From Candidatus Poribacteria bacterium (GTDB taxonomy: Bacteria > Poribacteria > WGA-4E > WGA-3G), in the NCBI GenBank assembly GCA_964291315.2, contig OZ219753.1, forward strand, positions 2,688,001-2,752,000: a stretch of DNA of 64,000 bases. Direction: 5' to 3'. Numbering within the stretch: position 1 is the stretch's first letter; the number at the start of each line of letters is the position of its first letter. Both the position numbers and the translations under genes were made by a program. The notes beneath the pieces are model-generated. The model made no database searches. It saw only the letters and a list, made by a program, of their open reading frames with translations, and had not been told where the DNA came from. Shown here piece after piece: positions 6,218-46,263 of this stretch.

Positions 6218-6344
6218 TATTATATGTGCCTTTCAAGAACTTTAGCGTAACGTAAACTCGATGTAGTGCAGCCAGATCTATATGTATATGGATTGAATCT
6301 ATGCACCACCGCGTGCCCAAAATGTAGCTTGTTCTTACGTAATG

Positions 6345-8315
<1,971 letters not shown>

Positions 8316-8548
8316 TCAGTTTATACTCATCTTCATCTGTCCATGCATCCATTCAAATTGTTGCAAGACATGCTTTTCGGACAGCAGTAGGATACGTTTC
8401 ATATCAAAAAAGAAAAACAGTGAAATTAAACTCTTCATATTTTGTTCTATTTAACATGTTAACACAAGTTCCATATTTTCGCAAATCGAAGGATAACGGC
8501 GACGGGGTTGTTCAGTTGACTGCCGAAAGCCGGTAATGCGAAAAATAG

Positions 8549-8577
8549 TTGACAGATTACAAATCTATTGTTACGCT
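8549..8577 (+). promoter_or_regulatory. putative sigma70 promoter for glcB
   Basis: TTGACA-17 bp-TACGCT upstream of glcB. Confidence 0.45.
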
Positions 8578-8718
8578 AATTGAAAATTAAGACACCGTTT
8601 GTTGTCCATGTAAAGATGCATCGGTTAACAGAAATATGCCCTTTGCCATGGAGCAAACCTACGTCTTGCAGTACGGGGAACCTGCAAGCAATGCCCTGCA
8701 GCCCCTCAAAATGGAGAA

Positions 8719-20509: not shown

Positions 20510-20612
20510 CTCCTTCTCGGATAGTTGATATGTAAACGGTGATTCGCGTTTCGTAATTTATTTTACCACGCGAATAAACCAAAATCAATCTTTACAAGTA
20601 TTCTTGAAGCTT

Positions 20613-22658: not shown

Positions 22659-22668
22659 CGTCGTCTCC

Positions 22669-24876
22669 TTATTCTTCCGGGTCCAGATCCTCCCGGGGCA
22701 TAATTTTTAAAGCGAATTTTTCCTGCAGAAGTTCTTTTTTTTCGAACCACCCGGTTTTTCCAAACAATTTAATTTTTAAGTCCACATCTCTTCCTTTTAC
22801 CTTGTCATCAGCGGTCATTCGGATGTTAATATCTTCCGCCGTATTTTTCCGAATTTTCCGAATTTTCACAAAATTATCAAAACTCACTCCTTTTATCTCT
22901 GAAGGTTCAAGTTTAATTTCAATATTACGCGCAGTTTTTCCGGCGTTTTGAATTTTAAACTTAAGAGAGGCATCTTCACTTGCATCAAGCCAACCGTTCC
23001 CTTTATCATCTAGTCTGATTTCTCCTACTGAGAGTTTTAGATTTGAGTTTGGCCACGGGATTATCTCAAACCTGACTTCGATAAAGATTCCGAGCAGGAC
23101 TATAACGCTTAAGATAGCAGCATAAGATAAGACTTTCTTACGAATTTTTTGGTTTTTCTTCATGCTTTTCGCAAGCTTTATGATTTGAAAGAGTTCGCGT
23201 GCTTGCTGATGATTTGGTTTGCGCTTTAGCACTTCGTCCACGGCGGCTTGAGCGTCGTCAAAGGCCTCTAATTCAAGGTAGGCCTGTCCTAATCCGTAGT
23301 GTGCCTCTATAGAATGAGGATCCGCCTTTATTACGCGTTTGAACGTGGCAGCTGCTTGATTATACTGCCCGTTGTTAAGAAAAAGTAACCCTCGTGCCAA
23401 GTCTTGTTTGGTATCCGGGGGATCCGCCGCCGGTGTACTTGCTGCCTTCGTTGGTGTGGATTGGCGTCCAATAGGAGGGCGCGCTTGTCTAATACCATCT
23501 AACAGGCGGTGTGCAGCTGGAGCATTATCATCAATCCTTAGGACAGCGTTTGCTGCACTCTCTGCCTCATCAAGTTGTCCCATTTCAAGGTAGAGTTCCG
23601 CCAAACACGTGTGAGCCGCTGCATAATTGGGATCCAAATCTATCGCCTTTCGGAACTCCGCGATCGCTTCTGTGTGCTTCTTCTCATTTCGATAGACGGT
23701 TCCCAACTCATAATGCATTTCCTGTTTCGGTTTTATACCGGATTGCGGGACTACAGATGTGCGTGATTCTGGCGGTTCTGGTGTCTCTGATATCTCCGTT
23801 TCCAAATATGTAAAACTGGGGTCAATCGCTTCCAAAAGGGAGCGTGCAGGTTGATAGTCGGCATCCAGTTTCAATGTTTCTGTCGCTGCCTCCCGTGCTT
23901 TTCCGAGTTCCTGTTGTCCGAGGTAAGCGACAGCAAGTGCGTGGCGTGCAGCTTTGTAAGTTGGATCCAGAGTTATCGTTTTCTGAAGTTCATCTACAGC
24001 ACGTGGGTACTCCTCCATTTTCAGGTAGGTTAACCCAAGCTTGTAATGCCCATTGGTAAAATTAGGATCAAGTACTATAGCCTGTTGGAAAGCTGCAGCA
24101 GCTTCGTCATAGTGTTCATCGTTGAGGCAAGCGATACCACTGTTATAGTGTGCCTGTTTTATTGTGTCTGCAAGCTCATGTGCAGGCTGGTAATCCGGGT
24201 CAAGTCTCAGTGTTTCCGTGACAGCATATGTGGCGGATTCCAAATTTCCTGATTTTTGGTAGGCGCTGGCAAGATTATAGTGAGCGCGCTTAAGATTCGG
24301 AGCGATGGCTATAGCACGCTCTAGGTGTGGTATCGCTTTGTCATATTCGCCCTGCTCGACGTAAGCGTATCCGAGGTTATAACGCGCGTCAACGAGATCT
24401 GGATCGTGGGTTATCGCGTTTTGCAAAGCATCAATTGCTTTCTGATACGCCTTCATACCGATATAGGCAGTACCGAGGTGGGCATGAATATGTGTGTTTT
24501 GAAGAGGGGAGGCCCGCGAACTATTCTCCAAGTCAGCATCAAGGTCGATAGCTTTCTGGAACGCTGCAACGGCTTCGGTATAACACTTCTCCTCTAAGTA
24601 GACCAAGCCTTTGTCCTGATATGCTTCTGTTATAGTGCCGTGGAGGAGTAAAGCGGGTTGGTGAGTCGCGTCAAGTTTCAATGCAGTTGTGACCGCGCTC
24701 TGTGCCTTCTCAAGTTCACCTTGTTCGAGGTAGGCACGACAGATTGCACAGCGTGCCGCTATAAAATTCTCATCCAATTTTATAGCGGCTTCAAATTCAG
24801 GGATTGCCCTATTGTAGTGTCCCGCTTCGAGATAAGCGATACCGAGGTTGTAGTGAGCCTCTCTTATAGCGTTCAT
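22669..24876 (-). CDS. tetratricopeptide repeat protein with C-terminal TM and small Ig/CARDB-like domain
   Basis: Many canonical TPRs (AHYNLG.AY, LDPDY..A); hydrophobic helix near residue 585. Confidence 0.9.
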   Translation of the reverse strand: MNAIREAHYNLGIAYLEAGHYNRAIPEFEAAIKLDENFIAARCAICRAYLEQGELEKAQSAVTTALKLDATHQPALLLHGTITEAYQDKGLVYLEEKCYTEAVAAFQKAIDLDADLENSSRASPLQNTHIHAHLGTAYIGMKAYQKAIDALQNAITHDPDLVDARYNLGYAYVEQGEYDKAIPHLERAIAIAPNLKRAHYNLASAYQKSGNLESATYAVTETLRLDPDYQPAHELADTIKQAHYNSGIACLNDEHYDEAAAAFQQAIVLDPNFTNGHYKLGLTYLKMEEYPRAVDELQKTITLDPTYKAARHALAVAYLGQQELGKAREAATETLKLDADYQPARSLLEAIDPSFTYLETEISETPEPPESRTSVVPQSGIKPKQEMHYELGTVYRNEKKHTEAIAEFRKAIDLDPNYAAAHTCLAELYLEMGQLDEAESAANAVLRIDDNAPAAHRLLDGIRQARPPIGRQSTPTKAASTPAADPPDTKQDLARGLLFLNNGQYNQAAATFKRVIKADPHSIEAHYGLGQAYLELEAFDDAQAAVDEVLKRKPNHQQARELFQIIKLAKSMKKNQKIRKKVLSYAAILSVIVLLGIFIEVRFEIIPWPNSNLKLSVGEIRLDDKGNGWLDASEDASLKFKIQNAGKTARNIEIKLEPSEIKGVSFDNFVKIRKIRKNTAEDINIRMTADDKVKGRDVDLKIKLFGKTGWFEKKELLQEKFALKIMPREDLDPEE

Positions 24877-33791: not shown

Positions 33792-35024
33792 TTACCTCCT
33801 TTCTTCGATCGTTTTGGCGAGGTACATGAGCTCCGATGTGCACCGGGCTTCTACCTCTGCCATCGCAACGCTGAGTTCTGCTTCCGAGCGAGCGTGTAGC
33901 TGGAGTCGTTCTTCGGTGATTTTGACATAGCGCTCGTTCTCTATATCGACGAATTCAATCTGTTCTTTGTTTTCGTTTACCAAAGCGTAACTTAAGAGAC
34001 CATTCTGTGAGGATTCTTCATCTGCCGGTCCTTCGAAGCAATCTTTTATCGCTAGCCCGTTGAAATTTTTGTAGAGCGCCCGAGCCGGAAGTTTATCAGG
34101 CAACAGACACACCGGCTGCGATGCTGTGTCTGGAATAGATTTTTCGGAATTTGTAAGCGTTTCTGGATTTTGAATTGTTTCGGTTGTTTCCTTACGACTC
34201 AATTCTCCGGGAGGAGATAAGGCATGCTGCGCAGAGATTTCCGTTGCGGATTCAGTATCCTCATTTCTTTCGCGTTTATTATTTACGCTAGTTTCTGAAA
34301 GGATAGGAATCTGTTGTGATGGATCAGGTTCTGAATCTTCGTTTTCCAATACGTCCGAAAGAACCTCCTTGACCCCGTCACGCCAGTCGGTAATTATTTC
34401 CTGTTCCTCGACTAGCACGCGCAGCGTTTCGATCCCGATAGCCTGAATCATTGGGTGAAACGCGAGTATCTTAGGCGGTGCCACCTCAAAAAGGGAGCGG
34501 TTAACATAAGCTGCTTCGGCGAGATTTCGCTTGCCAGTTAGCTTGAGCCGGGTTTCACAGGCAGTGAGTGCTTGGCACAAGCGTCGCATAAATTCGGGTG
34601 TAACTAGGTGCGGGAGCACCTTTACCTGGAAGCTTTCACCTGTCTGTTCCGGTTCTGGCTTTGAAATGAATTGCCCGATGATTGCTGAGTCTTCGTCCAA
34701 CACCTTTGTTTCGGGAACTAGGTTTTCATCAATTGATGGATCTGTCGGAGCATCTGAACCGTCTATGTCCTGAGCGCCGAGTAATTCAATTACCTGCGTG
34801 TACATCTGTTCAGGATCGAAAAGGACTCCTTCAAACTCAGGCTCGAGCAGCAATTCTCGACTCAGTGAGATGCAAGCATGTAAATGCTCTTCCTCCGATT
34901 TTTCGTAAGGAAGTCTACGTTGCTTTTCAACAGCAGTCCGCTTTTGTCTAGATTTTTTGTTCCGATTTCGCTTTTCACGTTTCCGTGCCACATTCGCGGA
35001 ACGGGTTCTCTTTTTTTTAGCCAT
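33792..35024 (-). CDS. hypothetical protein (basic N-terminus, acidic body)
   Basis: 410-aa ORF with no recognisable motif. Confidence 0.75.
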   Translation of the reverse strand: MAKKKRTRSANVARKREKRNRNKKSRQKRTAVEKQRRLPYEKSEEEHLHACISLSRELLLEPEFEGVLFDPEQMYTQVIELLGAQDIDGSDAPTDPSIDENLVPETKVLDEDSAIIGQFISKPEPEQTGESFQVKVLPHLVTPEFMRRLCQALTACETRLKLTGKRNLAEAAYVNRSLFEVAPPKILAFHPMIQAIGIETLRVLVEEQEIITDWRDGVKEVLSDVLENEDSEPDPSQQIPILSETSVNNKRERNEDTESATEISAQHALSPPGELSRKETTETIQNPETLTNSEKSIPDTASQPVCLLPDKLPARALYKNFNGLAIKDCFEGPADEESSQNGLLSYALVNENKEQIEFVDIENERYVKITEERLQLHARSEAELSVAMAEVEARCTSELMYLAKTIEERR

Positions 35025-35329
35025 AGTAATGTATTTTCGCTATTACTAACGTAGTTATGTTCTAACGAATAGATGTTCCGTATTCCAAACAGCATGCAGT
35101 ATCAAATTTGACACACTGTTTTTTAAGTATATACCAACATATCTTCCTTGTCAAGTCTAAATTTATGGGTGTTTGCAGTTATTTACAGAAACCTGAAGTT
35201 TCCATCCTTGTGGTGTTAGGTTAACACTCGTTGTACTTGGTATCTTCTGTGTGTCTATTTTCACAATAAGCAGTTTAGTAGAACGCGTTTAGTCCGGGCG
35301 ATTGATTTTGTGTCAGGTTCAAATAAAAC

Positions 35330-35358
35330 TTGACATTATGCATTATTTGCTATAAAAT
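35330..35358 (+). promoter_or_regulatory. putative sigma70 promoter of the GrpE/Hsp70/J-like operon
   Basis: TTGACA-17 bp-TAAAAT. Confidence 0.55.
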
Positions 35359-35626
35359 AGTGTGATTTTAAAAAAAATTGGGGGAGGCCAAAAAGATCGG
35401 TAACGCCGTTGTCCGAAAGAAAATGAAAGGGTTGATCTGGCTTATACCCACGGTTTTTGCTTATTCAGAGATGAACCACATGTTTATCAAGGCAGCGTTA
35501 TTGTATGGACAATGGCCGAATCGCGGTTTATTCTATAAGAATTAACACGGATCCCTAAGAACTAGGTGGTTGTGATATAAACTTAATCTCTAAATCCTGT
35601 CTTTTTGGACAGAGGAGGTAATTGCT

Positions 35627-36412
35627 TTGAACTCGGAATTTACAGAACAGCAACGGCAAGGGTTGGAATCGATGGAACAATTGCTGCCGAAGCTGGTATC
35701 AATGGAGCAAGAAATGTCTGCTTTGCGTGAGCTGTTTACAAAGCAGCTCGCCCGCAACCAGCGGCATCAGCAGATGTTCGACGCGGTCTATAAAGAAATG
35801 AAAGCGTATAAGGATGACAGATTCCGTGAAATATTTCACAAACCTGTTATCAATAACTTAATTCGACTCTACGATAACTTTAAGGAGGTAGAATCACAAC
35901 TGCGGGACCTCAAAGAGGTGTCCGGAGCTGATGGATCAGAGGTTAACATCGGTGACCTCATCGTATCTGTTTTTAACGATAGGCCCGAAAAAGAGCAGAA
36001 GAAACTGCTTAAGCAGGTTAAGTCTGCAAGGTCTGTTAAAAGTTTAGCAGAAAGACTGCAATCCATTCAGGAAAACTCTAAAGAGGTTCAACCAAAGTCT
36101 CAGGTGGGCCTGTCTCAATTTCAGAAGAATTTGGAAAACGTCCGTGTTCAATTGGAAGAGGTGTTATGTCGCATGGAGGTTACCCCTTATACCGAGCATC
36201 CAGAGAGACTTAATATGGAAATGCACCAAACCGTTGACACGATAGAGACCGATGACCCTGATAAGGATGAAGTCGTCGTTGAGATACGTAAGTCTGGATT
36301 CAAGTGGCGTGAACAGATATTTCGCCTAGAAGAGGTGATAATCTACCGCTATAAATCCGCTACAGGGGAATCGTCAAAAACAGTTGACGAAAAGTCAACA
36401 AAAGGAGAATAA
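35627..36412 (+). CDS. grpE: GrpE-like nucleotide exchange factor
   Basis: Coiled-coil N-half; C-terminal LNMEMHQTV...VVEIRKSGF.W....FRLEEV (GrpE beta domain); AGGAGG RBS; directly upstream of Hsp70. Confidence 0.8.
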   Translation: MNSEFTEQQRQGLESMEQLLPKLVSMEQEMSALRELFTKQLARNQRHQQMFDAVYKEMKAYKDDRFREIFHKPVINNLIRLYDNFKEVESQLRDLKEVSGADGSEVNIGDLIVSVFNDRPEKEQKKLLKQVKSARSVKSLAERLQSIQENSKEVQPKSQVGLSQFQKNLENVRVQLEEVLCRMEVTPYTEHPERLNMEMHQTVDTIETDDPDKDEVVVEIRKSGFKWREQIFRLEEVIIYRYKSATGESSKTVDEKSTKGE

Positions 36413-36416
36413 ACTG

Positions 36417-38042
36417 ATGGGTAAAGTTGTTGGTATCGATTTAGGCACGACCTTTTCTGCGATCGCACACGTTAACGACTATGCACAAGCAGAAATTGTC
36501 CCGAATAAGCAGAATGAGCGCACTACGCCCTCCGTGATACTATTTCAAGACGATAATGTTGTCGTTGGGAAAATAGCCAAGGCTCAGGCAAAGGCGATGC
36601 CCGAACAGATCGTCGAGTTCGTCAAACGCGAGATGGGGAAACAGAAGGGAGCCGGTGAAAACGAATTTTGCCGTGAGTTTAATGGCAAATCATATTCGGC
36701 TGAAGAACTCTCCGCACAGATTTTGCTAAAACTTAAACAGGATGCGGAGGCACATCTTGGCACAGAGATCACTGACGCTGTCATTACAGTCCCGGCCTAT
36801 TTCAAAGACGCGGAGCGGAGTGCCACACGACTCGCTGGGGAAATTGCCGGACTGAACGTCTTACAAGTTGTCAATGAACCGACCGCCGCCGCGCTCGCTT
36901 ACGGTCTTGATCTACAGAACAGCGGTCAGACCGTGTTCGTCTTTGACCTGGGTGGTGGAACGTTCGACGTAACGATCATGAAGGTCTCCGGTTCGGAGTT
37001 AAGAATGATTGCGACGGATGGAGACAGCCGCCTCGGTGGGAAGGACTGGGACGATGAAATAATTAAGTATGTTGCTGAGAAATTCGAAATAGAGCACGGT
37101 TCCAATCCCTTAGACGACAACTACACGTATCAAGATATCCAATCTGAAGCTATTCAAGCAAAGGAACATTTGACAGAACTTGAAACAACACGCATCGTTT
37201 TCAACTACGAAGGTAAGAGTAGTAATGTGGAGTTGACGCGTGAGAAGTTTGAGGAACTCACTGCAGATCTCCTTGGGAGGTGTAGGGCCACGTGTGAACA
37301 CGTTCTCTCAGAAGCCAAAATGACGTGGGAAGATATTAATACGGTGTTGTTGGTTGGTGGTTCCACCCGGATGCCGATGGTGCGAAAGATGATTGCTGAG
37401 ATCAGCGGTAAAGAAATTAACCCGACGGAGGTCAATCTAGATGAGGTGGTTGCACACGGGGCTGCTATCTATGGAACCCTCCGCCAGATTGAGGAGGTGA
37501 TAATTGACAAAACTTCTGAAACAGCCACGGAAGAAGATATTTCGGAAGCTGTCAAGGATAAGTTCATCAATGATTCTGACGAAACCGTAATAGCGGTGTT
37601 TGATCGCGCCACACATAACCTTGGATTGACTGTAAGCAAAACAGTCGATAAAAAAAGGAAGGTATACACTCATGTGATGATTCCCAAAATGACCCCCGTT
37701 CCATGTGAGATAACAAGAGATTCGTTTGGAACACTAGAGGACAATCAACAAGGTGTCTTAATCAATGTTTTTCAGGGACTCGAACATAACAAACTTATAG
37801 AGGAAATACCTGACTTTGAAAACCATAGAATAGGTAAAACCACCCTTAAACTACCGCCTAACTTACCGAAAGGAACTCCCATTAAAGTTACCTTTGAGTA
37901 TAACCGTGATCAAACGCTTGAGGTAACTGCGGAGGGACCTAATAATAGTAGCATAGATATAACGATTGATCGTAAGACCCTCAATAAAGAGCAAGTTACT
38001 GAAGCAACCACAAACCTCCAAGAAAATTTGAAGGTTAAATAG
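36417..38042 (+). CDS. Hsp70/DnaK-family protein, short paralog lacking the helical lid
   Basis: GIDLGTT, TVPAYF, NEPTAAA, FDLGGGTFD, LVGGSTRMP; ends at ~541 aa. Confidence 0.95.
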   Translation: MGKVVGIDLGTTFSAIAHVNDYAQAEIVPNKQNERTTPSVILFQDDNVVVGKIAKAQAKAMPEQIVEFVKREMGKQKGAGENEFCREFNGKSYSAEELSAQILLKLKQDAEAHLGTEITDAVITVPAYFKDAERSATRLAGEIAGLNVLQVVNEPTAAALAYGLDLQNSGQTVFVFDLGGGTFDVTIMKVSGSELRMIATDGDSRLGGKDWDDEIIKYVAEKFEIEHGSNPLDDNYTYQDIQSEAIQAKEHLTELETTRIVFNYEGKSSNVELTREKFEELTADLLGRCRATCEHVLSEAKMTWEDINTVLLVGGSTRMPMVRKMIAEISGKEINPTEVNLDEVVAHGAAIYGTLRQIEEVIIDKTSETATEEDISEAVKDKFINDSDETVIAVFDRATHNLGLTVSKTVDKKRKVYTHVMIPKMTPVPCEITRDSFGTLEDNQQGVLINVFQGLEHNKLIEEIPDFENHRIGKTTLKLPPNLPKGTPIKVTFEYNRDQTLEVTAEGPNNSSIDITIDRKTLNKEQVTEATTNLQENLKVK

Positions 38043-38066
38043 GGAAAAGCGTTGGTAACAGCTGCT

Positions 38067-38110
38067 GTGTCACAAGGTGAGGTTGTTGCCGCACCCTTAC
38101 CTTGTGACGC
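38067..38110. other. intergenic stem-loop
   Basis: GTCACAAGGTGAGG-N12-CCTTACCTTGTGAC. Confidence 0.6.
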
Positions 38111-38140
38111 GCATCCCCCTAATTGCAAAAGGAGTAGTAG

Positions 38141-39229
38141 GTGTCTAAACGAGATGATTTTACCACTATCATTAAAACGTTGAAAAAAGCATTGCCTAGT
38201 ATTACCGATGACCAATATAAAAGGTTGGTCAGGCAAGGCATGCATGACTACGGACTCTCCCAGGATGAGGCAGAGCGGATCATCAAAAAAGAGGTAGGCC
38301 TGATTATTGGGAAAGTGGTAAATCATTTTCAGGAGTTAGGGCTCACAATTGATGACCTGAAAAACCTGAGTGAAGACGAAATCGAAAAACTTGTTCAGGC
38401 TAAGTATGATCTCCTTTATAAGCAGGCAAGAATTAGCGCCAATCCCAGGAATGCTGAGAAACAGGCAGCGTTGAATGCGGCAAGGGATACGCTACTTGAT
38501 CCACAGAGGCGGCAGGAACACATTCAACTCCTTGAGCGGCAGAAAACGTCTTCCAACACCGAGGATGGAAACTCTCAGAAACGCAGTAGCACAGACGTGA
38601 GAGCTATCTTCAAGTTCGGGAAGGTAGCGGCTATTTTAGCAATTCTTGCTTTTCTGCTCTTATTGGGACTTGGACTTGATAACATTATCAAAAATTCGAA
38701 AACACAACCCCACGCTACAGAATTCCAAGAAGGCAAGCCTGCAACCGTACTACGCGCACGTCGTACTGGGGCAGGCACAACGGGCTCGCCAGCAAAGCCT
38801 CAGATCGATCCCACAACGGTGGTGGCCGTTATTGAAACGGCAAAGGGCACTATTGAATTTGAATTTCTTGCAACTGAAGCACCCGAAACTTCCAAGAATT
38901 TCATTAAGAACGCCCAAGTCATGTATTATAAAGGCGAGAAGTTTAATCGCGCAGAAGAACTTCTCGTCCAAGCAGGATCGAATCTCGCCGCCGGAGACAC
39001 ACTTCCAATTGAGAACGGTTCGCAACAGATGTCGCGGGGCGTTGTCGCCCTAGCGAAAGAAGAAGGGGCGAGTGTCTCCTATGTGTCAGAATTCTTTATC
39101 TGTCGAGGCGATGTTATTCTTGACAGTGATTACACCATTTTCGGAAACGTCGTCAGCGGTATGGAGGTCGTTGACAGAATCACCGTTGGCGACGCAATTA
39201 TGAACATTACTATTCGAGAGAAAGAGTAA
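38141..39229 (+). CDS. J-domain-like / TM / cyclophilin-type PPIase fusion protein
   Basis: NHFQELGL...LNAARDTLLDPQRRQEH (J-like, no HPD); TM VAAILAILAFLLLLGLGL; IETAKGTIEFE..APETSKNF..YTIFGNVVSGMEVVDRI. Confidence 0.8.
   Translation: MSKRDDFTTIIKTLKKALPSITDDQYKRLVRQGMHDYGLSQDEAERIIKKEVGLIIGKVVNHFQELGLTIDDLKNLSEDEIEKLVQAKYDLLYKQARISANPRNAEKQAALNAARDTLLDPQRRQEHIQLLERQKTSSNTEDGNSQKRSSTDVRAIFKFGKVAAILAILAFLLLLGLGLDNIIKNSKTQPHATEFQEGKPATVLRARRTGAGTTGSPAKPQIDPTTVVAVIETAKGTIEFEFLATEAPETSKNFIKNAQVMYYKGEKFNRAEELLVQAGSNLAAGDTLPIENGSQQMSRGVVALAKEEGASVSYVSEFFICRGDVILDSDYTIFGNVVSGMEVVDRITVGDAIMNITIREKE
38246..38724 (+). repeat. near-identical direct repeat, copy 1 (J-like + TM module)
   Basis: Matches 40549-41027 with only about 2 differences seen by eye. 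Confidence 0.9.
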
Positions 39230-39240
39230 TGGATATCGGC

Positions 39241-39288
39241 TAGCAGTTAGCAGATAGCGGTTGGCAAATCAGAAACTGCTAACTGCTA
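39241..39288. repeat. heptamer-based inverted repeat
   Basis: TAGCAGTTAGCAG...CTGCTAACTGCTA, perfect 13-bp arms. Confidence 0.7.
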
Positions 39289-39361
39289 AGACCGATTTGT
39301 GAAGTTTATGTTTTTTCGAACTCTCGTTTAATTGTATATTTTGTTATAAATGGAGGCATAT

Positions 39362-39568
39362 ATGTCTTTAACTGTTACTCGAACGGCGCGTCCAAGCCCC
39401 GTCTGGCAGGAAAGTTACGTGCGCGTCAAAAAAGGGCAACGTCTCATTATTGATGCAGAGGGCGCGTGGTCCCCGGATCTGCAAAATCGGACCGGATGGT
39501 GCGGCGGAGATGGGGTGCCTAAGACCCCAGGCTCCAACGGTTATCTATTACCCGGCACAAATAGTTGA
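39362..39568 (+). pseudogene. truncated N-terminal fragment of a PA-IL/LecA-like lectin-fold protein
   Basis: GGAGG RBS; WQESYVRVKKGQRLIIDAEGAWS...CGGDG...LPGTN, then a stop exactly where the FGE-module linker begins in another frame. Confidence 0.5.
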
Positions 39569-40379
39569 TGAAAACCCTCAAAAATGGAGTAGCAGAGACA
39601 CGCAAGCCCTCGACACCGCAGTCTCAGGGATGGTATTGATCCCATCGGGCACCTTTCGGATGGGCAGCACCACAGGCGATGCCAATGAACGCCCTGTTCA
39701 CACTGTCACTTTAGATGCGTTTTATATGGATACACACGAAGTAACAAACGCAGAATACGTCAAATTTCTCAATGCTATGGGCAGACATGCAAATGCCGGC
39801 CGTCCATGGCTGGCTATCTGGAAGAGTGGTGTGCGCATTGAGCGTTTAGGTGGAACGTATCGCCCAAAGGCGGGGTATGCGGATCATCCTGTTGTTCATG
39901 TGAGCTGGTATGGTGCGATGGCTTATGCTGCCTGGGTAGGCAAGCGTCTGCCGACCGAGGCGGAGTGGGAGTATGCCGCACGCGGTGGGTTAGCAGGGAA
40001 GGAATATCCTTGGGACGACACGATTGACAGCACGCGGGCAAACTACAACGATAATGTCGGTAGTACGACAGCAGTTGGCAGTTATGATGCGAACGGGTAT
40101 GGTCTGTATGATATGGCGGGGAATGTCTGGGAATGGTGTCTGGATGCGTACAACAAACACTTCTATACCATTTCATCTGCCTGTAATCCGCTATCGGGGC
40201 CGTCCAGGATTGATTGGTTATTGAGAAACTATACAAATGTTGAGTCTAATCGCGTCTTGCGTGGCGGATCTTGGTACAGTACAGCGCAAAAGGTACGAGT
40301 TGCCTATCGCTACAAATCTTCTCCTGCGCGCACGAACGTCAGTGTCGGTTTTCGTTGTGCAAGTTCTGTATCCGCTTGA
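39564..40379 (+). CDS. orphan FGE-sulfatase/SUMF1 (C-type lectin fold) domain; headless module, possible internal ATG at 39630
   Basis: MVLIPSGTFRMG, RLPTEAEWEYAARGG, GLYDMAGNVWEWC, RVLRGGSW...GFRC. Confidence 0.8.
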   Translation, partial: VDENPQKWSSRDTQALDTAVSGMVLIPSGTFRMGSTTGDANERPVHTVTLDAFYMDTHEVTNAEYVKFLNAMGRHANAGRPWLAIWKSGVRIERLGGTYRPKAGYADHPVVHVSWYGAMAYAAWVGKRLPTEAEWEYAARGGLAGKEYPWDDTIDSTRANYNDNVGSTTAVGSYDANGYGLYDMAGNVWEWCLDAYNKHFYTISSACNPLSGPSRIDWLLRNYTNVESNRVLRGGSWYSTAQKVRVAYRYKSSPARTNVSVGFRCASSVSA

Positions 40380-40443
40380 ACCTTTACTTTACTCCCTGTG
40401 GCACAGATGGACAGTTTATGCTACAGATTATAAGGAGTAGCAC

Positions 40444-43400
40444 ATGTCTAAACGAGATGATTTTACCATTTTTATTCAGGGATGGAAAAAAGCTGCCCCT
40501 AATATTACTGTTGACCAATACAAAGGGTTAATCAGGCAAGGCATACACGACTACGGACTCTCCCAGGATGAGGCAGAGCGGATCATCAAAAAAGAGGTAG
40601 GCCTGATTATTGGGAAAGCGGTAAATCATTTTCAGGAGTTAGGGCTCACAATTGATGACCTGAAAAACCTGAGTGAAGACGAAATCGAAAAACTTGTTCA
40701 GGCTAAGTATGATCTCCTTTATAAGCAGGCAAGAATTAGCGCCAATCCCAGGAATGCTGAGAAACAGGCAGCGTTGAATGCGGCAAGGGATACGCTACTT
40801 GATCCACAGAGGCGGCAGGAACACATTCAACTCCTTGAGCGGCAGAAAACGTCTTCCAACACCGAGGATGGAAACTCTCAGAAACGCAGTAGCACAGACG
40901 TGAGAGCTATCTTCAAGTTCGGGAAGGTAGCGGCTATTTTAGCAATTCTTGCTTTTCTGCTCTTATTGGGACTTGGACTTGATAACATTATCAAAAATTC
41001 GAAAACACAACCCCACACTACAGAATTTGTTGATGATTCGCCGAAGGGGTCTTCGGGCACCGCAGCAATCTCAGAGAGGTCTGCATCCTCTACACAGCAG
41101 GAAACTTCTTCCAGCACGGACGATGGAAACCGACAGAAACGCAATAGCAGAGACGCGCTAACCCCCGAACCCCCAGTCTCAGGGATGGTATTGATCCCAT
41201 CGGGCACCTTTCGGATGGGCAGCACCACAGGTGATGCCAATGAACGCCCTGTTCACACTGTTACTGTAGATGCGTTTTATATGGATACGCACGAAGTAAC
41301 AAACGCACAATACGCCGATTTTCTTAATGCTATGGGCAGACATGCAGATGCGGGTCATACGTGGTTGGCTCTCGGTAGCCGTGGTGCACACATTGAGCGT
41401 TTAGGTGGAACGTATCGCCCGAAGGCGGGGTATGCGGATCATCCTGTTGTTCGTGTGAGTTGGTATGGTGCGATGGCATATGCGAAGTGGGCAGGCAAGC
41501 GCCTGCCTACCGAGGCGGAGTGGGAATACGCCGCACGCGGCGGCGAGTCGGGTCTGAAGTATCCCTGGGGAAACACGATTGACAGCACACGGGCAAACTA
41601 CGACAGAAATGTCGGTGAGACGACAAGAGTAGGGCATTATGGTGCAAATAGCTATGGTCTGTATGACATGGTCGGAAATGTCTATGAATGGTGCTTAGAT
41701 GCATATAATAGAGACTCCTATGCCAGTTATCCTGCCCGTAATCCGCTATCGGGTGCGTTTAGTATTCATTGGCTATCAGATAATTATACAGAGATTAAGT
41801 CTAGACGCGTCTTGCGTGGCGGATCTTGGCTCAGTGAAGCTCAGTACGTGCGGGTCGCCAACCGCTTTGACTATACGCCGACGAGCACGTCCCTCTTCAC
41901 AGGCTTTCGTTGCGCAAGGTCTGCATCCTCTACACAACAGGAAACCCCTCCCAGCCCGGACGATGAAAACCCTCAAAAATGGAGTAGCAGAGACGCGCAA
42001 CCCTCCGACCCATCAGTCTCAGGGATGGTATTGATCCCATCGGGCACCTTTCGGATGGGCAGCACCACAGGTGATGCCAATGAACGCCCTGTTCACACTG
42101 TTACTGTAGATGCGTTTTATATGGATACACACGAAGTAACAAACGCACAATACGCGGACTTTCTTAATGCTATGGGTAGACATGCAGATGCGGGTCATAC
42201 GTGGTTGGCTCTCGGTAGCCGTGGTGCACACATTGAGCGTTTAGGCGGAACGTATCGTGTGAAAGCAGGGTATGCGGATCATCCTGTTGTTCGTGTGAGT
42301 TGGTATGGTGCAATGGCATATGCGAAGTGGGCAGGCAAGCGTCTGCCGACGGAGGCGGAGTGGGAGTATGCTGCGCGCGGCGGCAAGTCGGGTCTGAAGT
42401 ATCCGTGGGGAAACACGATTGACAGCTGGCATGCGAACTACGACAGAAATATCGGTAAGACAACAAGAGTAGGGCATTATGGTGCAAATAGCTATGGTCT
42501 GTATGACATGGTCGGAAATGTCTACGAATGGTGCTTAGATGCATATAATAGAGACTCCTATGCTAGTTCTCCTGCTCACAATCCAGGTACGTTTAGTATT
42601 CAGTGGCTGTTAGATAATTATACAGAGATTAAGTCTGACCGCGTCTTGCGTGGCGGCTCCTGGGCCGGTTCAGCATGGCTCGTGCGTGTTGCCAATCGTG
42701 GCAGCTTTTCGCCTTGGATAACGGGCGCCGGCCTCGGTTTCCGTTGTGTAAGGTCTGTATCTCTTACGCGGCAGGAAACACCTCCCAGCCCGGATGATGA
42801 AAACTCTCAAAAATGGAGTAGCAGAGACGTGCTAACCCCCGCCCCCCCAGTCTCAGATATGGTATTGATCCCATCGGGCACCTTCCAGATGGGCAGCACC
42901 ACAGGTGATGCCAATGAACGTCCTGTTCACACTGTTACTGTAGATGCGTTTTATATGGATACGCACGAAGTGACGAACGCAGAATACGCCGCGTTCCTCA
43001 ATGCGAAGGGAAAACACACAGACGCTGGCAAGACTTGGTTGTTTATCGGTAGCAGTGGTGCACGCATTGAGCGTTTAGGTGGAACGTATCGCCCAAAGAC
43101 AGGGTATGCGGATCATCCTGTTGTTTATGTGAGCTGGTATGGTGCGATGGCGTATGCGAAGTGGAAGGGCAAGCGGCTGCCGACGGAAGCAGAGTGGGAA
43201 TACGCTGCTCGCGGCGGATTAGCAGGCAAACTTTATCCCTGGGGCGACACCGTAGACTCCAGCCGTGCGAACTATGATTGGAACGTCGGTAGGACAACGG
43301 CAGGCGGTGCGTATGCTGCGAACGATTACGGTCTGTATGATATGGTCGGAAATGTTTCGGAGTGGTGTCTGGATGCGTATGATAGCGCCTTCTATACCAG

Positions 43401-45282
43401 TTATCCTGCCCATAATCCGCTATCGGGTGCGTCTAGTATCCAGTGGCTGTTAGATAATTATACAGAGATTAAGTCTGACCGCGTCTTGCGTGGCGGCTCC
43501 TGGGCCAGTTTAGCAGGGCTTGTACGGGTTGCCAACCGCAGTAACTTTTCGCCTGGGGTAACGAGCTCCGTCTTCGGTTTCCGTTGTGTAAAGCCTGTAT
43601 CTCTTACGCGGCAGGAAACCCCTCCCAGCCCGGACGATGAAAACCCTCAAAAATGGAGTAGCAGAGACGCGCAACCCTTCGACACCGCAGTCTCAGGGAT
43701 GGTATTGATCCCATCGGGCACCTTTCGGATGGGCAGCACCACAGGTGATGCGGATGAACGCCCTGTTCACACTGTCACTTTAGATGCGTTTTATATGGAT
43801 ACATACGAAGTGACGAACGCAGAATACGCCGATTTTCTTAATGCTATGGGCAGACATGCCGATGCGGGTCATACGTGGTTAAATATGGATAGCGGCGGTG
43901 TACGCATCGAGCGTTTGGGCGGAACGTATCGTGTGAAAGCGGGGTATGCGGATCATCCTGTTGTTCATGTGAGTTGGTATGGTGCAATGGCATATGCGAA
44001 GTGGAAGGGCAAGCGCCTGCCTACCGAGGCGGAGTGGGAGTATGCAGCACGCGGCGGCAAGTCGGGTCTGAAGTATCCCTGGGGAAACACGATTGACAGC
44101 ACGCATGCAAACTACGGCAGAAATGTCGGTAAGACAACAAGAGTAGGGCATTATGGTGCAAATAGCTATGGTCTGTATGACATGGTCGGAAATGTCTATG
44201 AATGGTGCTTAGATGCATATAATAGAGACTCCTATGCTAGTTCTCCTGCTCACAATCCTGGAGCGTCTAGTATTCATTGGCTATTAGATAATTATGCAAA
44301 GGTTGAGTCTCAACGCGTCTTGCGCGGCGGATCTTGGCTCAGTGAAGCTCAGTACGTGCGGGTCGCCTACCGCAACTACTATACGCCGACGAGCACGTCC
44401 TTCTTCACAGGCTTTCGTTGTGCAAGGTCTGCATCCTCTACACAACAGGAAACCTCTTCCAACACGGACAATAGAAACTATCAGAAACGTAGCAGCAGAG
44501 ACGCGCAACCCTCCGACCCATCAGTCTCAGGGATGGTATTGATCCCATCGGGCACCTTTCGGATGGGCAGCACCACAGGTGATGCGGATGAAAGCCCTAT
44601 TCACACTGTCACTTTAGATGCGTTTTATATGGATACACACGAAGTAACAAACGCAGAATACGCGGATTTTCTTAATGCTATGGGCAGACATGCAGATGCA
44701 GGCCATACATGGCTGGCTATCTGGAAGAGTGGTGTGCGCATTGAGCCTTTAGATAGAACGTATCGTGTGAAAGCGGGGTATGCGGATCATCCTGTTGTTC
44801 ATGTGAGTTGGTATGGTGCGATGGCGTATGCTGCGTGGGCGGGCAAGCGCCTGCCTACCGAGGCGGAGTGGGAATATGCCGCACGCGGCGGCAAGTCGGG
44901 TCTGAAGTATCCGTGGGGAAACACGATTGACAGCACGCAGGCGAGATACGCTAGAAAGACCCGTAGTCCGACAGCGGTAGGGCGTTATGCTGCGAACGGG
45001 TATGGTCTGTATGATATGGTCGGAAATGTCTGGGAGTGGTGTCTGGATGCGTATGACAAAAACTTCTATACCATTTCACCTACTTCTAATCCGCTATCGG
45101 GCGCGTCTAGTATTCAGTGGCTGTTAGATAATTATGCAGAGATTAAGTCTAGACGCGTCTTGCGTGGCGGCTCCTGGGAAAATACAGCGGGAAACGTGCG
45201 GGCCGCCTTCCGCTTTTATGATACGCCGACGAGCACGTTCCCCGTCACCGGTTTCCGTTGTGCAAGGTCTGTATCGCCTTGA
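40444..45282 (+). CDS. J-like / TM / 5x FGE-sulfatase (CLec-fold) protein; probable DGR-type variable protein
   Basis: Same N-terminal module as the 38141 gene; five domains starting at 41185, 42025, 42859, 43699, 44533, each ending in RVLRGGSW...GFRC. Confidence 0.93.
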   Translation: MSKRDDFTIFIQGWKKAAPNITVDQYKGLIRQGIHDYGLSQDEAERIIKKEVGLIIGKAVNHFQELGLTIDDLKNLSEDEIEKLVQAKYDLLYKQARISANPRNAEKQAALNAARDTLLDPQRRQEHIQLLERQKTSSNTEDGNSQKRSSTDVRAIFKFGKVAAILAILAFLLLLGLGLDNIIKNSKTQPHTTEFVDDSPKGSSGTAAISERSASSTQQETSSSTDDGNRQKRNSRDALTPEPPVSGMVLIPSGTFRMGSTTGDANERPVHTVTVDAFYMDTHEVTNAQYADFLNAMGRHADAGHTWLALGSRGAHIERLGGTYRPKAGYADHPVVRVSWYGAMAYAKWAGKRLPTEAEWEYAARGGESGLKYPWGNTIDSTRANYDRNVGETTRVGHYGANSYGLYDMVGNVYEWCLDAYNRDSYASYPARNPLSGAFSIHWLSDNYTEIKSRRVLRGGSWLSEAQYVRVANRFDYTPTSTSLFTGFRCARSASSTQQETPPSPDDENPQKWSSRDAQPSDPSVSGMVLIPSGTFRMGSTTGDANERPVHTVTVDAFYMDTHEVTNAQYADFLNAMGRHADAGHTWLALGSRGAHIERLGGTYRVKAGYADHPVVRVSWYGAMAYAKWAGKRLPTEAEWEYAARGGKSGLKYPWGNTIDSWHANYDRNIGKTTRVGHYGANSYGLYDMVGNVYEWCLDAYNRDSYASSPAHNPGTFSIQWLLDNYTEIKSDRVLRGGSWAGSAWLVRVANRGSFSPWITGAGLGFRCVRSVSLTRQETPPSPDDENSQKWSSRDVLTPAPPVSDMVLIPSGTFQMGSTTGDANERPVHTVTVDAFYMDTHEVTNAEYAAFLNAKGKHTDAGKTWLFIGSSGARIERLGGTYRPKTGYADHPVVYVSWYGAMAYAKWKGKRLPTEAEWEYAARGGLAGKLYPWGDTVDSSRANYDWNVGRTTAGGAYAANDYGLYDMVGNVSEWCLDAYDSAFYTSYPAHNPLSGASSIQWLLDNYTEIKSDRVLRGGSWASLAGLVRVANRSNFSPGVTSSVFGFRCVKPVSLTRQETPPSPDDENPQKWSSRDAQPFDTAVSGMVLIPSGTFRMGSTTGDADERPVHTVTLDAFYMDTYEVTNAEYADFLNAMGRHADAGHTWLNMDSGGVRIERLGGTYRVKAGYADHPVVHVSWYGAMAYAKWKGKRLPTEAEWEYAARGGKSGLKYPWGNTIDSTHANYGRNVGKTTRVGHYGANSYGLYDMVGNVYEWCLDAYNRDSYASSPAHNPGASSIHWLLDNYAKVESQRVLRGGSWLSEAQYVRVAYRNYYTPTSTSFFTGFRCARSASSTQQETSSNTDNRNYQKRSSRDAQPSDPSVSGMVLIPSGTFRMGSTTGDADESPIHTVTLDAFYMDTHEVTNAEYADFLNAMGRHADAGHTWLAIWKSGVRIEPLDRTYRVKAGYADHPVVHVSWYGAMAYAAWAGKRLPTEAEWEYAARGGKSGLKYPWGNTIDSTQARYARKTRSPTAVGRYAANGYGLYDMVGNVWEWCLDAYDKNFYTISPTSNPLSGASSIQWLLDNYAEIKSRRVLRGGSWENTAGNVRAAFRFYDTPTSTFPVTGFRCARSVSP
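40549..41027 (+). repeat. near-identical direct repeat, copy 2 (J-like + TM module)
   Basis: Matches 38246-38724. Confidence 0.9.
41098..45282 (+). repeat. tandem intragenic repeat, 5 units of 834-840 bp
   Basis: GTCTCAG(G/A)ATGGTATTGATCCCATCGGGCACCTT-type start recurs with periods 840/834/840/834. Confidence 0.95.
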
Positions 45283-45699
45283 TTCTGAATCGCAGATGAA
45301 ATCGACGAAAGGCGCGGAAAATACAATCCGGGGCGTGATGGCAGGTAGCCTTCTACTGACGACTATCACCCCCCTTTATTTATCGCTGGCTCTCTATCTT
45401 TAGAATGGAACCTCCTATTCCCGGCCACACATTATACCCTCCCCCCGGCAAAACAGCCCTCATGAAACCCTACTGAGACGCATTAAATACTGAAACGGAC
45501 AAAACAGAGCATATCTATAGATGTCATGATCCAACTAAGACGCTGCGCATGTTTAAATTTTTTCCAGAAAACAGTTCGCGAGGCTCAGAGATCCCTCGGA
45601 CAGAAGCTCTGAATGCTCCCTCGTTAGTTTTTTCTATTGCACCTGTTCACACAATATGCTAAATTAAAATGATATTTGAATCCAGAGGAGGACTATTAA

Positions 45700-46263
45700 A
45701 TGCGTCGAAATTACATAATCGTTTGCACGATGGGGGTACTTGTAGCCGCCGCCATCGCTCTGAATATCAACAACGTCGAAAGTCAAAGCGATATGATACA
45801 ACGGGGAAAATACCTCGTCGACACAGTCGGAGCATGCGGGCATTGTCACACGCCCCGTGCTGGTGCTGAATATGACATGGAGATGTACCTTGCTGGGCAT
45901 CCCGCGAATGCTTCATATCCACGCTACAACTTTAGCATGATGCAACAAGGAATTTTTCTTCTGACATCCCCGCAAATGAGTGCGTTTTCCGGTCCGTTCG
46001 GAACCACTTTCGCGTCAAACCTTACGCCCGACAATCAAACAGGATTAGGCGAATGGACGGAGGAGATGTTCATTAACGCAATGCGCACGGGACATCATCA
46101 AGGCGACACGAGCAATCGGAAGATCTTCCCGCCAATGCCGATAAAGCATTATGCTGAAATGAATGAGAGTGATCTCAAGGCAATTTGGGCGTATCTCAGG
46201 AGTGTTAAGCCAGTTAAAAATGAGGTGAATCCGCCGTTGAATCAGCGAGGGCGTCCATACTAA
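45700..46263 (+). CDS. c-type cytochrome (single CxxCH), exported
   Basis: Signal peptide, RGKYLV...CGHCHTPR, SNLTPD..TGLGEWT, PPMP. Confidence 0.9.
   Translation: MRRNYIIVCTMGVLVAAAIALNINNVESQSDMIQRGKYLVDTVGACGHCHTPRAGAEYDMEMYLAGHPANASYPRYNFSMMQQGIFLLTSPQMSAFSGPFGTTFASNLTPDNQTGLGEWTEEMFINAMRTGHHQGDTSNRKIFPPMPIKHYAEMNESDLKAIWAYLRSVKPVKNEVNPPLNQRGRPY

Follow-up and report, generated by a model that had tools for sequence, protein, structure and literature searches.

A 64,000-nt stretch of the genome of a Candidatus Poribacteria bacterium (C4:2688001-2752000, C4 being one of the genome's contigs; hereafter the window) carries, at 35627-45282, a co-oriented set of five open reading frames (ORFs) of at least 200 amino acids (aa) on the + strand. 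They encode a GrpE-like protein, a short Hsp70 that lacks the helical lid, and two proteins that share an N-terminal J-like module and a predicted transmembrane (TM) helix, one of which ends in a cyclophilin domain and the other in five formylglycine-generating enzyme (FGE)/C-lectin domains. A first-pass annotation of this DNA had described these four genes as co-oriented, and all four are present on the + strand. The fifth, an orphan FGE ORF, was absent from that annotation, as was the chimeric origin of the cyclophilin gene. The genes have the following window coordinates.

35627-36412, + strand: GrpE-like gene (PF01025)
36384-38042, + strand: ORF of the lid-less Hsp70 gene, probable ATG at 36417 (PF00012)
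38141-39229, + strand: J-like-TM-cyclophilin gene, 362 aa, with the cyclophilin domain at residues 230-351 (PF00160, E 8.5e-22)
39450-40379, + strand: orphan FGE ORF, 309 aa, without a J-like module (PF03781, E 1.8e-69, residues 59-304)
40444-45282, + strand: J-like-TM-5xFGE gene, 1612 aa, with five PF03781 stretches (module profile E 3.1e-57)

These genes do not represent the housekeeping chaperone system of the organism. The genome (4.40 Mb in four contigs, 95% complete) encodes a canonical full-length DnaK at C4:1389870-1391657 that scores 895 bits, compared with 392 bits for the window Hsp70, and this rules out the window protein as the only DnaK. A canonical GrpE at C4:1481233-1481715 adjoins a 379-aa DnaJ, so that the window GrpE-like protein is the second GrpE match of the genome, and three or four Pfam-detectable DnaJ proteins are encoded outside the window. 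The first-pass view that this is not housekeeping DnaK is borne out by this separate set.

The window GrpE-like protein is 261 aa long when read from its TTG start, and the true start may lie further in. It matches PF01025 with an E-value of 4.1e-9 (36.8 bits, cut-off 25.8), residues 123-239 covering profile positions 50-163 of 165, and it possesses both the dimerisation helix and the C-terminal beta domain of the family. Because it scores only 21 against the NCBIfam GrpE equivalog, whose cut-off is 176, we regard it as a divergent member.

The start of the Hsp70 was placed at ATG 36417, where its orthologues begin, which gives a protein of 541 aa (36417-38042). PF00012 matches it with an E-value of 1.3e-120 over profile positions 1-514 of 599; as the match stops at position 514, the helical lid is missing. 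The protein scores 409 against the NCBIfam DnaK model (cut-off 648). In an alignment of the window protein with 16 orthologues and the canonical DnaK of the genome, the ATPase motifs GIDLGTT, DLGGGTFD, NEPTAAALAYG and VGGSTRMP are intact, as expected of an actin-like nucleotide-binding domain (NBD) with its catalytic motifs, and the short protein ends about 80 columns before canonical DnaK. An insertion of about 27 residues separates the NBD from a recognisable interdomain linker, which reads VTVTD or AVFD in the short Hsp70s versus LLLD in DnaK. The beta substrate-binding domain (SBD) is kept but has diverged (16 bits to solved DnaK versus 286 bits for the NBD), and it is followed by a single short helix with which the chain ends; there is no C-terminal alpha-helical lid.

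The two proteins encoded downstream, which we refer to as adaptors, are identical at 183 of their first 200 residues (92%). This shared part consists of a helical subdomain, a domain with a J fold and one hydrophobic helix, which map in the first copy as follows.

38141-38311, + strand: three-helix subdomain, copy 1, residues 1-57 (AlphaFold2 helices 3-17, 23-37 and 41-51)
38312-38545, + strand: J-like domain, copy 1, residues 58-135, in which N-P-R replaces the His-Pro-Asp (HPD) motif (P102, R103)
38624-38677, + strand: predicted TM helix, copy 1 (from the hydropathy of the identical copy 2 segment)

The J-like character of the module had been suggested from the letters alone, and three methods now agree on it. 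A profile built from 18 members of the module family found Jac1 and HscB as its best sequence matches in the PDB (E 0.0065-0.04), with the 'HHPD' loop of Jac1 aligned to the 'glPR' of the family. The AlphaFold2 model of the module (mean predicted local distance difference test score, pLDDT, of 77) comprises the three-helix subdomain at residues 1-57 and then a helical domain at 58-138. When this model was compared with the PDB by Foldseek, J domains made up most of the top 30 rows (probability 0.82-1.0, E 0.2-1.3), superposing with a root-mean-square deviation (rmsd) of 2.2-3 Å over about 70 columns, the top rows having probabilities of 0.96-1.0 and E-values of 0.2-1. VIA-align likewise placed J domains in its top rows, with Z scores of 6-9.2 over 59-88 residues, including HscB (1fpo, Z 7.6, rmsd 2.5 Å over 67 residues) and Jac1 (3uo3, Z 6.1). 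These are modest scores for a small helical domain, where Z values under 8 are common, and it is the agreement of the three methods, not any single score, that leads us to model residues 58-135 as a four-helix J fold. The three-helix subdomain yielded generic three-helix matches only (Z about 5).

What the module lacks is the tripeptide found between helices II and III of J-domain proteins. HPD does not occur within the first 260 residues of any of 110 module ORFs from the fetched loci, in which xPR predominates, and P102 and R103 are at least 90% conserved across the family. Neither adaptor has a J-domain match in Pfam or NCBIfam, PF00226 missing the module altogether. The module is nonetheless a well-delimited family: residues 1-160, searched against 1.84 billion representative proteins, found 71 homologues at E ≤0.001 (60 of them at E ≤1e-10), nearly all aligned at their own N-terminus.

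A second change lies on the Hsp70 side. The Arg four residues before NEP, which we take to be R167 in E. coli numbering and the partner of the HPD Asp, is kept in the canonical DnaK of the genome and in solved DnaK. At the same position 25 of 26 adaptor-linked short Hsp70s have Gln and one has His. The Arg is also retained by all six Hsp70 paralogues encoded upstream in the same loci, four of which were confirmed as Hsp70-vWA fusions or checked by Pfam. The loss of HPD in the adaptors is therefore paired with the loss of Arg in their own Hsp70, the pattern that would be expected of a re-coded, insulated interface.

Complex prediction for the J-like module with the short Hsp70 gave a score of 0.45, compared with 0.00 for the best of three controls; at least 86% of contacts are shared between the runs, and the pLDDT of the partner is 77 or higher. 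The mark that this score passes is reached by 58 of 80 solved complexes and by 2 of 110 mismatched pairs, and passing scores of 0.60 or lower came from only 7 of those 80 complexes and from both passing mismatched pairs. Furthermore, because a complex of DnaK with a J domain has already been solved (5NRO), the pass may only reflect likeness. We take the prediction to lend weak support to the pairing.

Whether the module and the short Hsp70 belong together can also be judged from their distribution. We surveyed 176 species genomes of the phylum, which are kin, so that the counts are not independent and no statistical test was applied. The module profile matches 61 genomes, the window genome included; leaving that one out, it is found in 58 of 111 genomes of the family (f1), in 21 of 64 in the window's genus and in 34 of 40 in a sister genus. 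The C-terminal half of the short Hsp70, used as query at E ≤1e-30, matches 60 genomes, 20 of 64 in the window's genus. All 60 are among the 61 module-positive genomes; in a single genome (G130) the module occurs by itself, and the remaining 115 lack both. As the distribution is patchy inside a single genus, it shows that module and short Hsp70 are kept or lost together.

The two are linked physically as well. Twenty regions chosen by the module from genomes with long contigs represent 16 distinct loci, and in 14 of these the gene just before the adaptor genes encodes a short Hsp70 (58-62% identical); the exceptions are an array in genome G103, whose Hsp70 is elsewhere on the chromosome, and one orphan adaptor. 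Ten more loci were selected for having the best Hsp70 matches, and in each of them the Hsp70 is followed by a J-like gene. A GrpE-like gene is found upstream of the short Hsp70 in 9 of the 16 loci and is present in 9 of the 10. On all three points on which the first-pass annotation had staked its reading (the fold of the module, its linkage to this Hsp70 and GrpE in other genomes, and the existence of another DnaK) the findings went its way, and its private Hsp70, J-like and exchange-factor set with exchangeable C-terminal domains is upheld. In public records the homologous Hsp70s are named 'Hsp70 family protein', 'molecular chaperone DnaK' or 'hypothetical protein', several of the named ones coming from Candidatus Poribacteria metagenome-assembled genomes.

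The relatives fall into two subtypes. The commoner form is a soluble array, in which 1-13 tandem genes lie downstream of GrpE and Hsp70, each encoding a protein of about 410-490 aa made up of the full module and one binding domain (FGE, seven-bladed WD40 or ankyrin). Among 43 module homologues scanned, 16 end in FGE, 9 in ankyrin and 2 in WD40, and the WD40 and ankyrin adaptors sit within arrays. The soluble arrays lie in conserved synteny with UxuA-like, Laminin_G_3, sulfatase and GH95 genes, all absent from the window locus, and we read these flanking genes as synteny. In several soluble-array loci of the window's own genus (L040, L053-L055) no GrpE-like gene was found with the window query, and an ankyrin-only ORF of about 300 aa (L040:9558-10457, with equivalents in L053-L055) fills the slot upstream of the Hsp70.

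The window Hsp70 and GrpE are closest to a second, window-like subtype (63-66% and 39-57% identical, respectively), whose partner proteins have the J-like domain at their very start and no three-helix subdomain. Five of ten such loci have a gene for a protein of roughly 1000 aa that contains a hydrophobic helix around residue 480-510 and ends in FGE; the others encode late-helix J-like proteins and then separate FGE proteins bearing a signal or anchor. Hsp70-vWA fusions and secreted caspase-PEGA-FGE genes adjoin the GrpE-like gene in window-like loci. The fusions, of about 690-710 aa, lie directly upstream of it at L057:7518-9596 and L062:6141-8222, and the upstream Hsp70 paralogue of L064 (599 aa) has a C-terminal hydrophobic segment at about residue 536. 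The proteins beside the GrpE-like gene in relatives that resemble the FGE ORFs of the window genome in size are the caspase-PEGA-FGE proteins. The window locus is a hybrid of the two forms, with the full module, a helix straight after it and then domains that are probably outward-facing.

A constant N-terminus, variable C-termini and tandem arrays of up to 13 genes are also what polymorphic effector families look like, and the N-terminal module might instead be an export or delivery tag for eukaryote-like repeat proteins, with Hsp70 and the GrpE-like factor acting as a secretion chaperone. Poribacteria are sponge symbionts, and such repeat proteins are discussed as host-directed. The ankyrin and WD40 ends would suit this explanation, as would the origin of the nearest named homologues, which is in metagenome-assembled genomes of Candidatus Poribacteria. 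However, the constant part folds, by prediction, as a J domain, no conserved secretion-channel or translocon gene lies beside the arrays, and hydropathy suggests that the window-like adaptors are integral membrane proteins. We consider a trafficking role improbable.

Both window adaptors contain a hydrophobic stretch at about residues 162-180 whose 19-residue Kyte-Doolittle mean is 2.59, above the threshold of 2.0 that we used, a crude one. Basic residues are commoner on the N-terminal side of the predicted helix, which is likely to be oriented N-in/C-out. A C-out topology fits the nature of the captured domain, as the cyclophilin is a periplasmic enzyme. It also agrees with a habit of the genome, in which 43 ORFs contain 67 FGE domains and most of these ORFs carry an N-terminal signal-like hydrophobic segment; in most, a leader of about 360 aa lies ahead of the first FGE. 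The term membrane receptor, which the first-pass annotation had used, fits this locus and the window-like subtype but does not extend to the family as a whole, since a strongly hydrophobic segment is found in only 3 of 94 soluble-array module ORFs and in 17 of 71 database representatives.

The cyclophilin end of the shorter adaptor proved to be a recent acquisition. Over 38129-38724 the sequence matches the 5' end of the 5xFGE gene (40432-41027) at 95.5% identity, and beyond this region it switches to a captured segment.

38726-39563, + strand: captured segment, 838 nt (BLASTN 97.97% over 838 nt to C4:3119566-3120403, - strand)

The segment consists of the 3' part of a native cyclophilin gene, a spacer and the first ~200 nt of the next gene. 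The donor cyclophilin gene, which has a signal peptide and a lipobox, lies 392 kb away. The donor gene downstream of it (C4:3119395-3119778, - strand) encodes 127 aa, and its first ~200 nt are now at 39358-39563. From 39564 on, the sequence is again that of an FGE unit, entered at its linker; this leaves the orphan FGE ORF, whose first 114 nt derive from the captured segment in another frame, while the fusion of J-like module and cyclophilin is in frame. A 111-nt contig from the short-read set X1 spans 38684-38794 without a difference; X1 may be the source sample and is in that case not independent. The breakpoint 39563/39564 is unbridged among the short-read contigs listed, and an X1 contig that matches 38765-39563 with 12 differences runs on into the donor locus, as expected for the paralogue. 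The cyclophilin C-terminus that had been noted is thus present, but as judged from these alignments it is a product of recent recombination with the native lipoprotein cyclophilin locus (98%), a domain captured behind the J-like anchor and not a conserved architecture.

The five FGE units of the 1612-aa protein and the orphan unit are in register, with a spacing of 834/840 nt and 84-93% identity. Each ends in a hypervariable tip resembling the variable region (VR) of a diversity-generating retroelement (DGR).

40251-40377, + strand: VR-like hypervariable tip of the orphan FGE unit (BLASTN to DGR template repeats)
41806-41931, 42639-42761, 43479-43601, 44314-44439 and 45154-45280, + strand: equivalent tips of the five other units

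These domains could, in principle, be true formylglycine-generating enzymes, with the Hsp70 holding unfolded sulfatases for maturation. Pfam does assign them to FGE-sulfatase, and in soluble-array loci the second gene upstream of the Hsp70 encodes a sulfatase (PF00884, E 1.4e-64). Catalysis depends on a Cys pair just after GGS[WY] (GGSxxCxxxxC), as in human SUMF1. This pair is absent from all 6 window tips and from all 48 tips of relatives, 54 in total; moreover, the window locus has no sulfatase neighbour, and WD40, ankyrin and cyclophilin ends occupy the same slot as FGE. We therefore reject sulfatase maturation as a most improbable explanation. As no tip has the catalytic pair, the FGE domains appear to bind rather than to catalyse.

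The tips are of the GGSW...R...P...GFRC type known from DGR variable regions, and the first-pass annotation had pointed to FGE domains as common DGR targets. The genome contains two reverse transcriptase frames of 368 aa, both with a template-like repeat next to them, and its only PF00078 matches are at C4:495366-496007 and C3:32128-32769 (C3 being another contig). In the surrounding DGR-like loci, C4:493319-501466 and C3:29313-34822, FGE genes flank the reverse transcriptase frame. The template at C3 (about C3:31737-31846) is rich in AAC and differs cleanly, at A only, from nearby tips, and the C4 copy (C4:496289-496415) is short of many adenines, as if decayed or overwritten. Measured against the C3 template, the tips beside the reverse transcriptases mismatch at 17-25 of 35 A positions and at 1-3 of 82-86 non-A positions, the window tips at 17-27 of 33-35 A and at 8-13 of 79-82 non-A positions. 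When the six window units are compared with one another, variation is seen in 33 of 40 columns where the template has A and in 33 of 100 where it does not (Fisher p = 9e-8).

If the window units were being rewritten by these retroelements, the adaptor would be an actively hypervariable receptor. The two reverse transcriptases with their template-like repeats, the near A-only mismatches of the tips next to them and the A enrichment among the window units all speak for this. On the other hand, the window tips differ at 10-16% of non-A positions compared with 1-3.5% for clean targets, the genome holds no closer template, the retroelements are about 2.2 Mb away or on another contig, and ordinary diversifying selection would vary the same codons. 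We consider active rewriting decidedly improbable. What stands of the DGR proposal is a strongly A-biased, DGR-like pattern in units that are not clean targets of the genome's template and have neither reverse transcriptase nor template in their own locus. We read this pattern as a fossil: the window tips would descend from DGR-diversified cassettes that have since drifted; a similar pattern would also result from selection at the same binding-site codons. Across species, the soluble arrays keep their orthologous FGE tips, the first array gene having the same tip in seven sampled loci, which suggests a fixed repertoire.

Taken together, these observations make it on balance probable that the locus encodes a private second Hsp70 switch or clamp aimed by sensor-bearing J-like adaptors. 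The variable C-terminal domain would bind a specific ligand and so select the target or place; the J-like domain would dock, hold or regulate its partner Hsp70 through the re-coded contact; and the private GrpE-like factor would reset the cycle. In the window the adaptors would be single-pass membrane proteins whose J-like part faces the cytoplasm and whose FGE or cyclophilin domains face outward. The outcome would be an ATP-driven switch or clamp acting on defined targets or sites. A lid-less Hsp70 would be expected to bind and release quickly, according to the available text of PMC12642450.

A simpler function for a chaperone would be the folding or quality control of the adaptors themselves, the module serving as a cis tag that recruits the private Hsp70 to its own aggregation-prone domain, with no external ligand. 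The attached domains are all repeat-rich or beta-rich, their orthologous tips are conserved, the operon lacks an effector gene, and the number of FGE domains in the genome makes a demand for folding plausible. Yet 40 of the 43 FGE ORFs lack the module, which only two window genes carry, and evidently fold without it, most of them bearing N-terminal signal-like segments. The window FGE domains are predicted to lie outside the membrane, beyond the reach of a cytoplasmic Hsp70, and in the same genus 43 of 64 genomes do without the module and 44 of 64 without the Hsp70. We regard a dedicated folding role as unlikely.

For the private switch aimed by sensors, a role in recognition or surveillance is favoured because FGE, WD40 and ankyrin ends, vWA, caspase and Sel1 neighbours, and the C-terminal placement of FGE belong to the vocabulary of MoxR-vWA and STAND systems. 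Several points weigh against the switch. The window operon contains no effector (nuclease, pore-former or active protease) and no recognisable output. The conserved tips of the soluble arrays imply a stable repertoire rather than fast arms-race evolution, and the conserved synteny of the arrays could mean that part of the linkage reflects shared ancestry within one family, the compared genomes being kin and their co-occurrence counts not independent. HPD-less J-like domains such as Pam16 may not stimulate ATPase activity, the complex prediction lends weak support, and the membrane topology comes from a hydropathy scan. Finally, the PADLOC-DB 2.0 models cover no component of the locus: four of the five proteins are unmatched, and the lone match is of the Hsp70 to PDC-M61B (E 4.4e-4, 17 bits).

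A more specific version of this switch, which we put forward as possible but doubtful, is an innate recognition system centred on Hsp70. Germline-encoded arrays of J-like modules, fused to WD40 propellers, ankyrin or C-lectin/FGE tips derived from DGR-diversified cassettes, would act as pattern receptors and pass the foreign or host proteins that they have bound to an orthogonal, lid-less Hsp70, its Arg-to-Gln change being matched to the HPD-to-xPR change of the adaptors. This Hsp70 would be unable to cross-talk with housekeeping DnaJ and DnaK, and its GrpE-reset ATPase cycle would stand in for the NTPase of STAND or MoxR systems. In the membrane subtype, recognition outside would be coupled to Hsp70 recruitment inside.

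The specificity of Hsp70s is normally set by J proteins, of which bacteria are thought to hold only a handful. Here, one lineage possesses a separate pair of Hsp70 and nucleotide exchange factor, partners with a rewired contact motif, and up to 13 adaptor genes per genome, whose sensor domains are otherwise seen on bacterial NLR (nucleotide-binding leucine-rich repeat)-like and MoxR-vWA immune systems. If the pair is orthogonal to DnaK and DnaJ, it would represent a natural insulated, programmable chaperone circuit and a testable case of re-coding at the J-Hsp70 interface; should phage or host molecules be the ligands of the adaptors, it would constitute a chaperone-based branch of prokaryotic immunity or a set of symbiosis factors. 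The window itself records domain capture in action, a native cyclophilin having been spliced behind a J-like anchor.

Upstream of the locus, a promoter-like motif had been noted, and a site does exist in the 603-nt gap before the GrpE-like gene.

35330-35358, + strand: candidate promoter, TTGACA-17-TAAAAT (11/12 matches, the best + strand site in 35000-45800)

However, such sites occur in 35000-45800 at chance level, 14 being found and 14.1 expected from shuffles. The noted lack of a complete CIRCE element (controlling inverted repeat of chaperone expression) upstream agrees with our search, in which no CIRCE-like site was found in the whole window at up to 3 mismatches to the consensus, and an Rfam scan of the window at gathering thresholds returned no RNA family. 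Part of the same gap, 35278-35491, is a dispersed repeat with 78% identity over 218 nt to C3:199594-199810 and with shorter matches elsewhere in the genome. The 410-aa ORF at 33792-35024 (- strand) has no Pfam or NCBIfam family, no homologue in the fetched loci and no second copy in the genome, and is treated as unrelated to the Hsp70 locus.

Elsewhere in the window, a CRISPR (clustered regularly interspaced short palindromic repeats) array at 76-4699 is built from a 37-nt repeat that is present in 62 identical copies about 72-83 nt apart, which explains the low-GC (36-38%), ORF-poor start of the window. The genes after it (5138-10908) are metabolic and not cas, encoding a GFO/IDH/MocA oxidoreductase, ThiC and malate synthase. 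Genes for a 589-aa WD40 protein and two large TPR proteins (681 and 735 aa) follow one another at 18740-24876 (- strand); all three are repeat proteins of eukaryote-like type, and none carries the J-like module.

In the literature, the combination 'Hsp70 + GrpE + FGE-sulfatase' retrieved no papers, and our search, made in the articles themselves, found none describing an Hsp70 and GrpE with arrays of J-like-FGE, -WD40 or -ankyrin proteins. Hsp70 does not occur in the available text of a Poribacteria single-cell genomics paper (PMC3909097) or in that of PMC10907252, and sulfatase, WD40 and ankyrin do not occur in the available part of a preprint census of J proteins (10.1101/2022.02.28.482344).

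Like the canonical DnaK-DnaJ-GrpE triad, the window locus combines genes for an Hsp70 whose ATPase motifs are conserved, a factor of the GrpE family and a partner predicted to have a J fold. Unlike that triad, its Hsp70 is lid-less, with a diverged SBD and Gln at the conserved Arg, and its J-like domain lacks not only HPD but also the G/F region, the zinc finger and the DnaJ C-terminal domain. Furthermore, relatives have up to 13 adaptor genes per Hsp70, CIRCE is missing, and the canonical set is present in the same genome.

The HscA-HscB pair (Ssq1-Jac1) offers a second parallel, as a dedicated Hsp70 with a client-specific J protein, and the best PDB matches of the module are Jac1 and HscB. 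In contrast to that pair, no isc or other iron-sulfur assembly genes are found among the window neighbours, and the window Hsp70 scores 322 against TIGR01991, whose cut-off is 708, so that the two proteins are not HscA and HscB. HscB keeps HPD. HscA is not known to need GrpE, whereas a GrpE-like gene is present at the window locus.

Closer in gene content are the GAP1-N2 GTPase systems (Kaur et al., 2020; PMC7159879), which in the available text are described, mainly from actinobacteria and firmicutes, as containing HSP70, GrpE and FNIII (fibronectin type III) proteins fused to DnaJ or TPR, the chaperone being proposed to set a threshold in a conflict system. They share with the window a non-housekeeping HSP70, a GrpE and the fusion of a J domain to a repeat or binding module, and they differ in having FNIII where the present family has FGE, WD40 or ankyrin. 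Pfam finds no GTPase in 30498-50805, a result to be read with the points that GAP1-N2 may not be in Pfam and that the 410-aa ORF upstream has no family.

Lid-less DnaK-like domains have also been described as fusions to EACC1-protease defence modules (bioRxiv 2025; PMC12642450). In the available text, the DnaK-like protein there is about 50% identical to DnaK, lacks the lid helices and is proposed to sense rather than to refold. The lid-less DnaK-like protein is a shared feature, as is, loosely, the caspase-domain gene beside the GrpE-like gene in window-like relatives, the caspase-PEGA-FGE gene being found in relatives only. Here, unlike in those modules, the Hsp70 is a separate protein accompanied by GrpE-like and J-like partners of its own: it has PF00012 and overlapping actin-fold matches only, with no fused protease, and the window encodes no protease. 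An HPD-less J family, a matched change in the Hsp70 and tandem adaptor arrays are all absent from the descriptions in the available text of PMC7159879 and PMC12642450.

Finally, the MoxR-vWA ternary systems and the STAND/Avs receptors (PMC7159879, PMC13581612) use the same kinds of sensor, namely FGE (there called 'FGS'), WD40 or other repeats, and FGE tips related to DGR variable regions. In the MoxR-vWA systems FGS is always C-terminal, according to the available text of PMC7159879, which is the syntax found at the window locus. The difference lies in the NTPase, which here is an Hsp70 and not an AAA+ or STAND protein, and which would be coupled to the sensor in trans through a J-like domain rather than by fusion.

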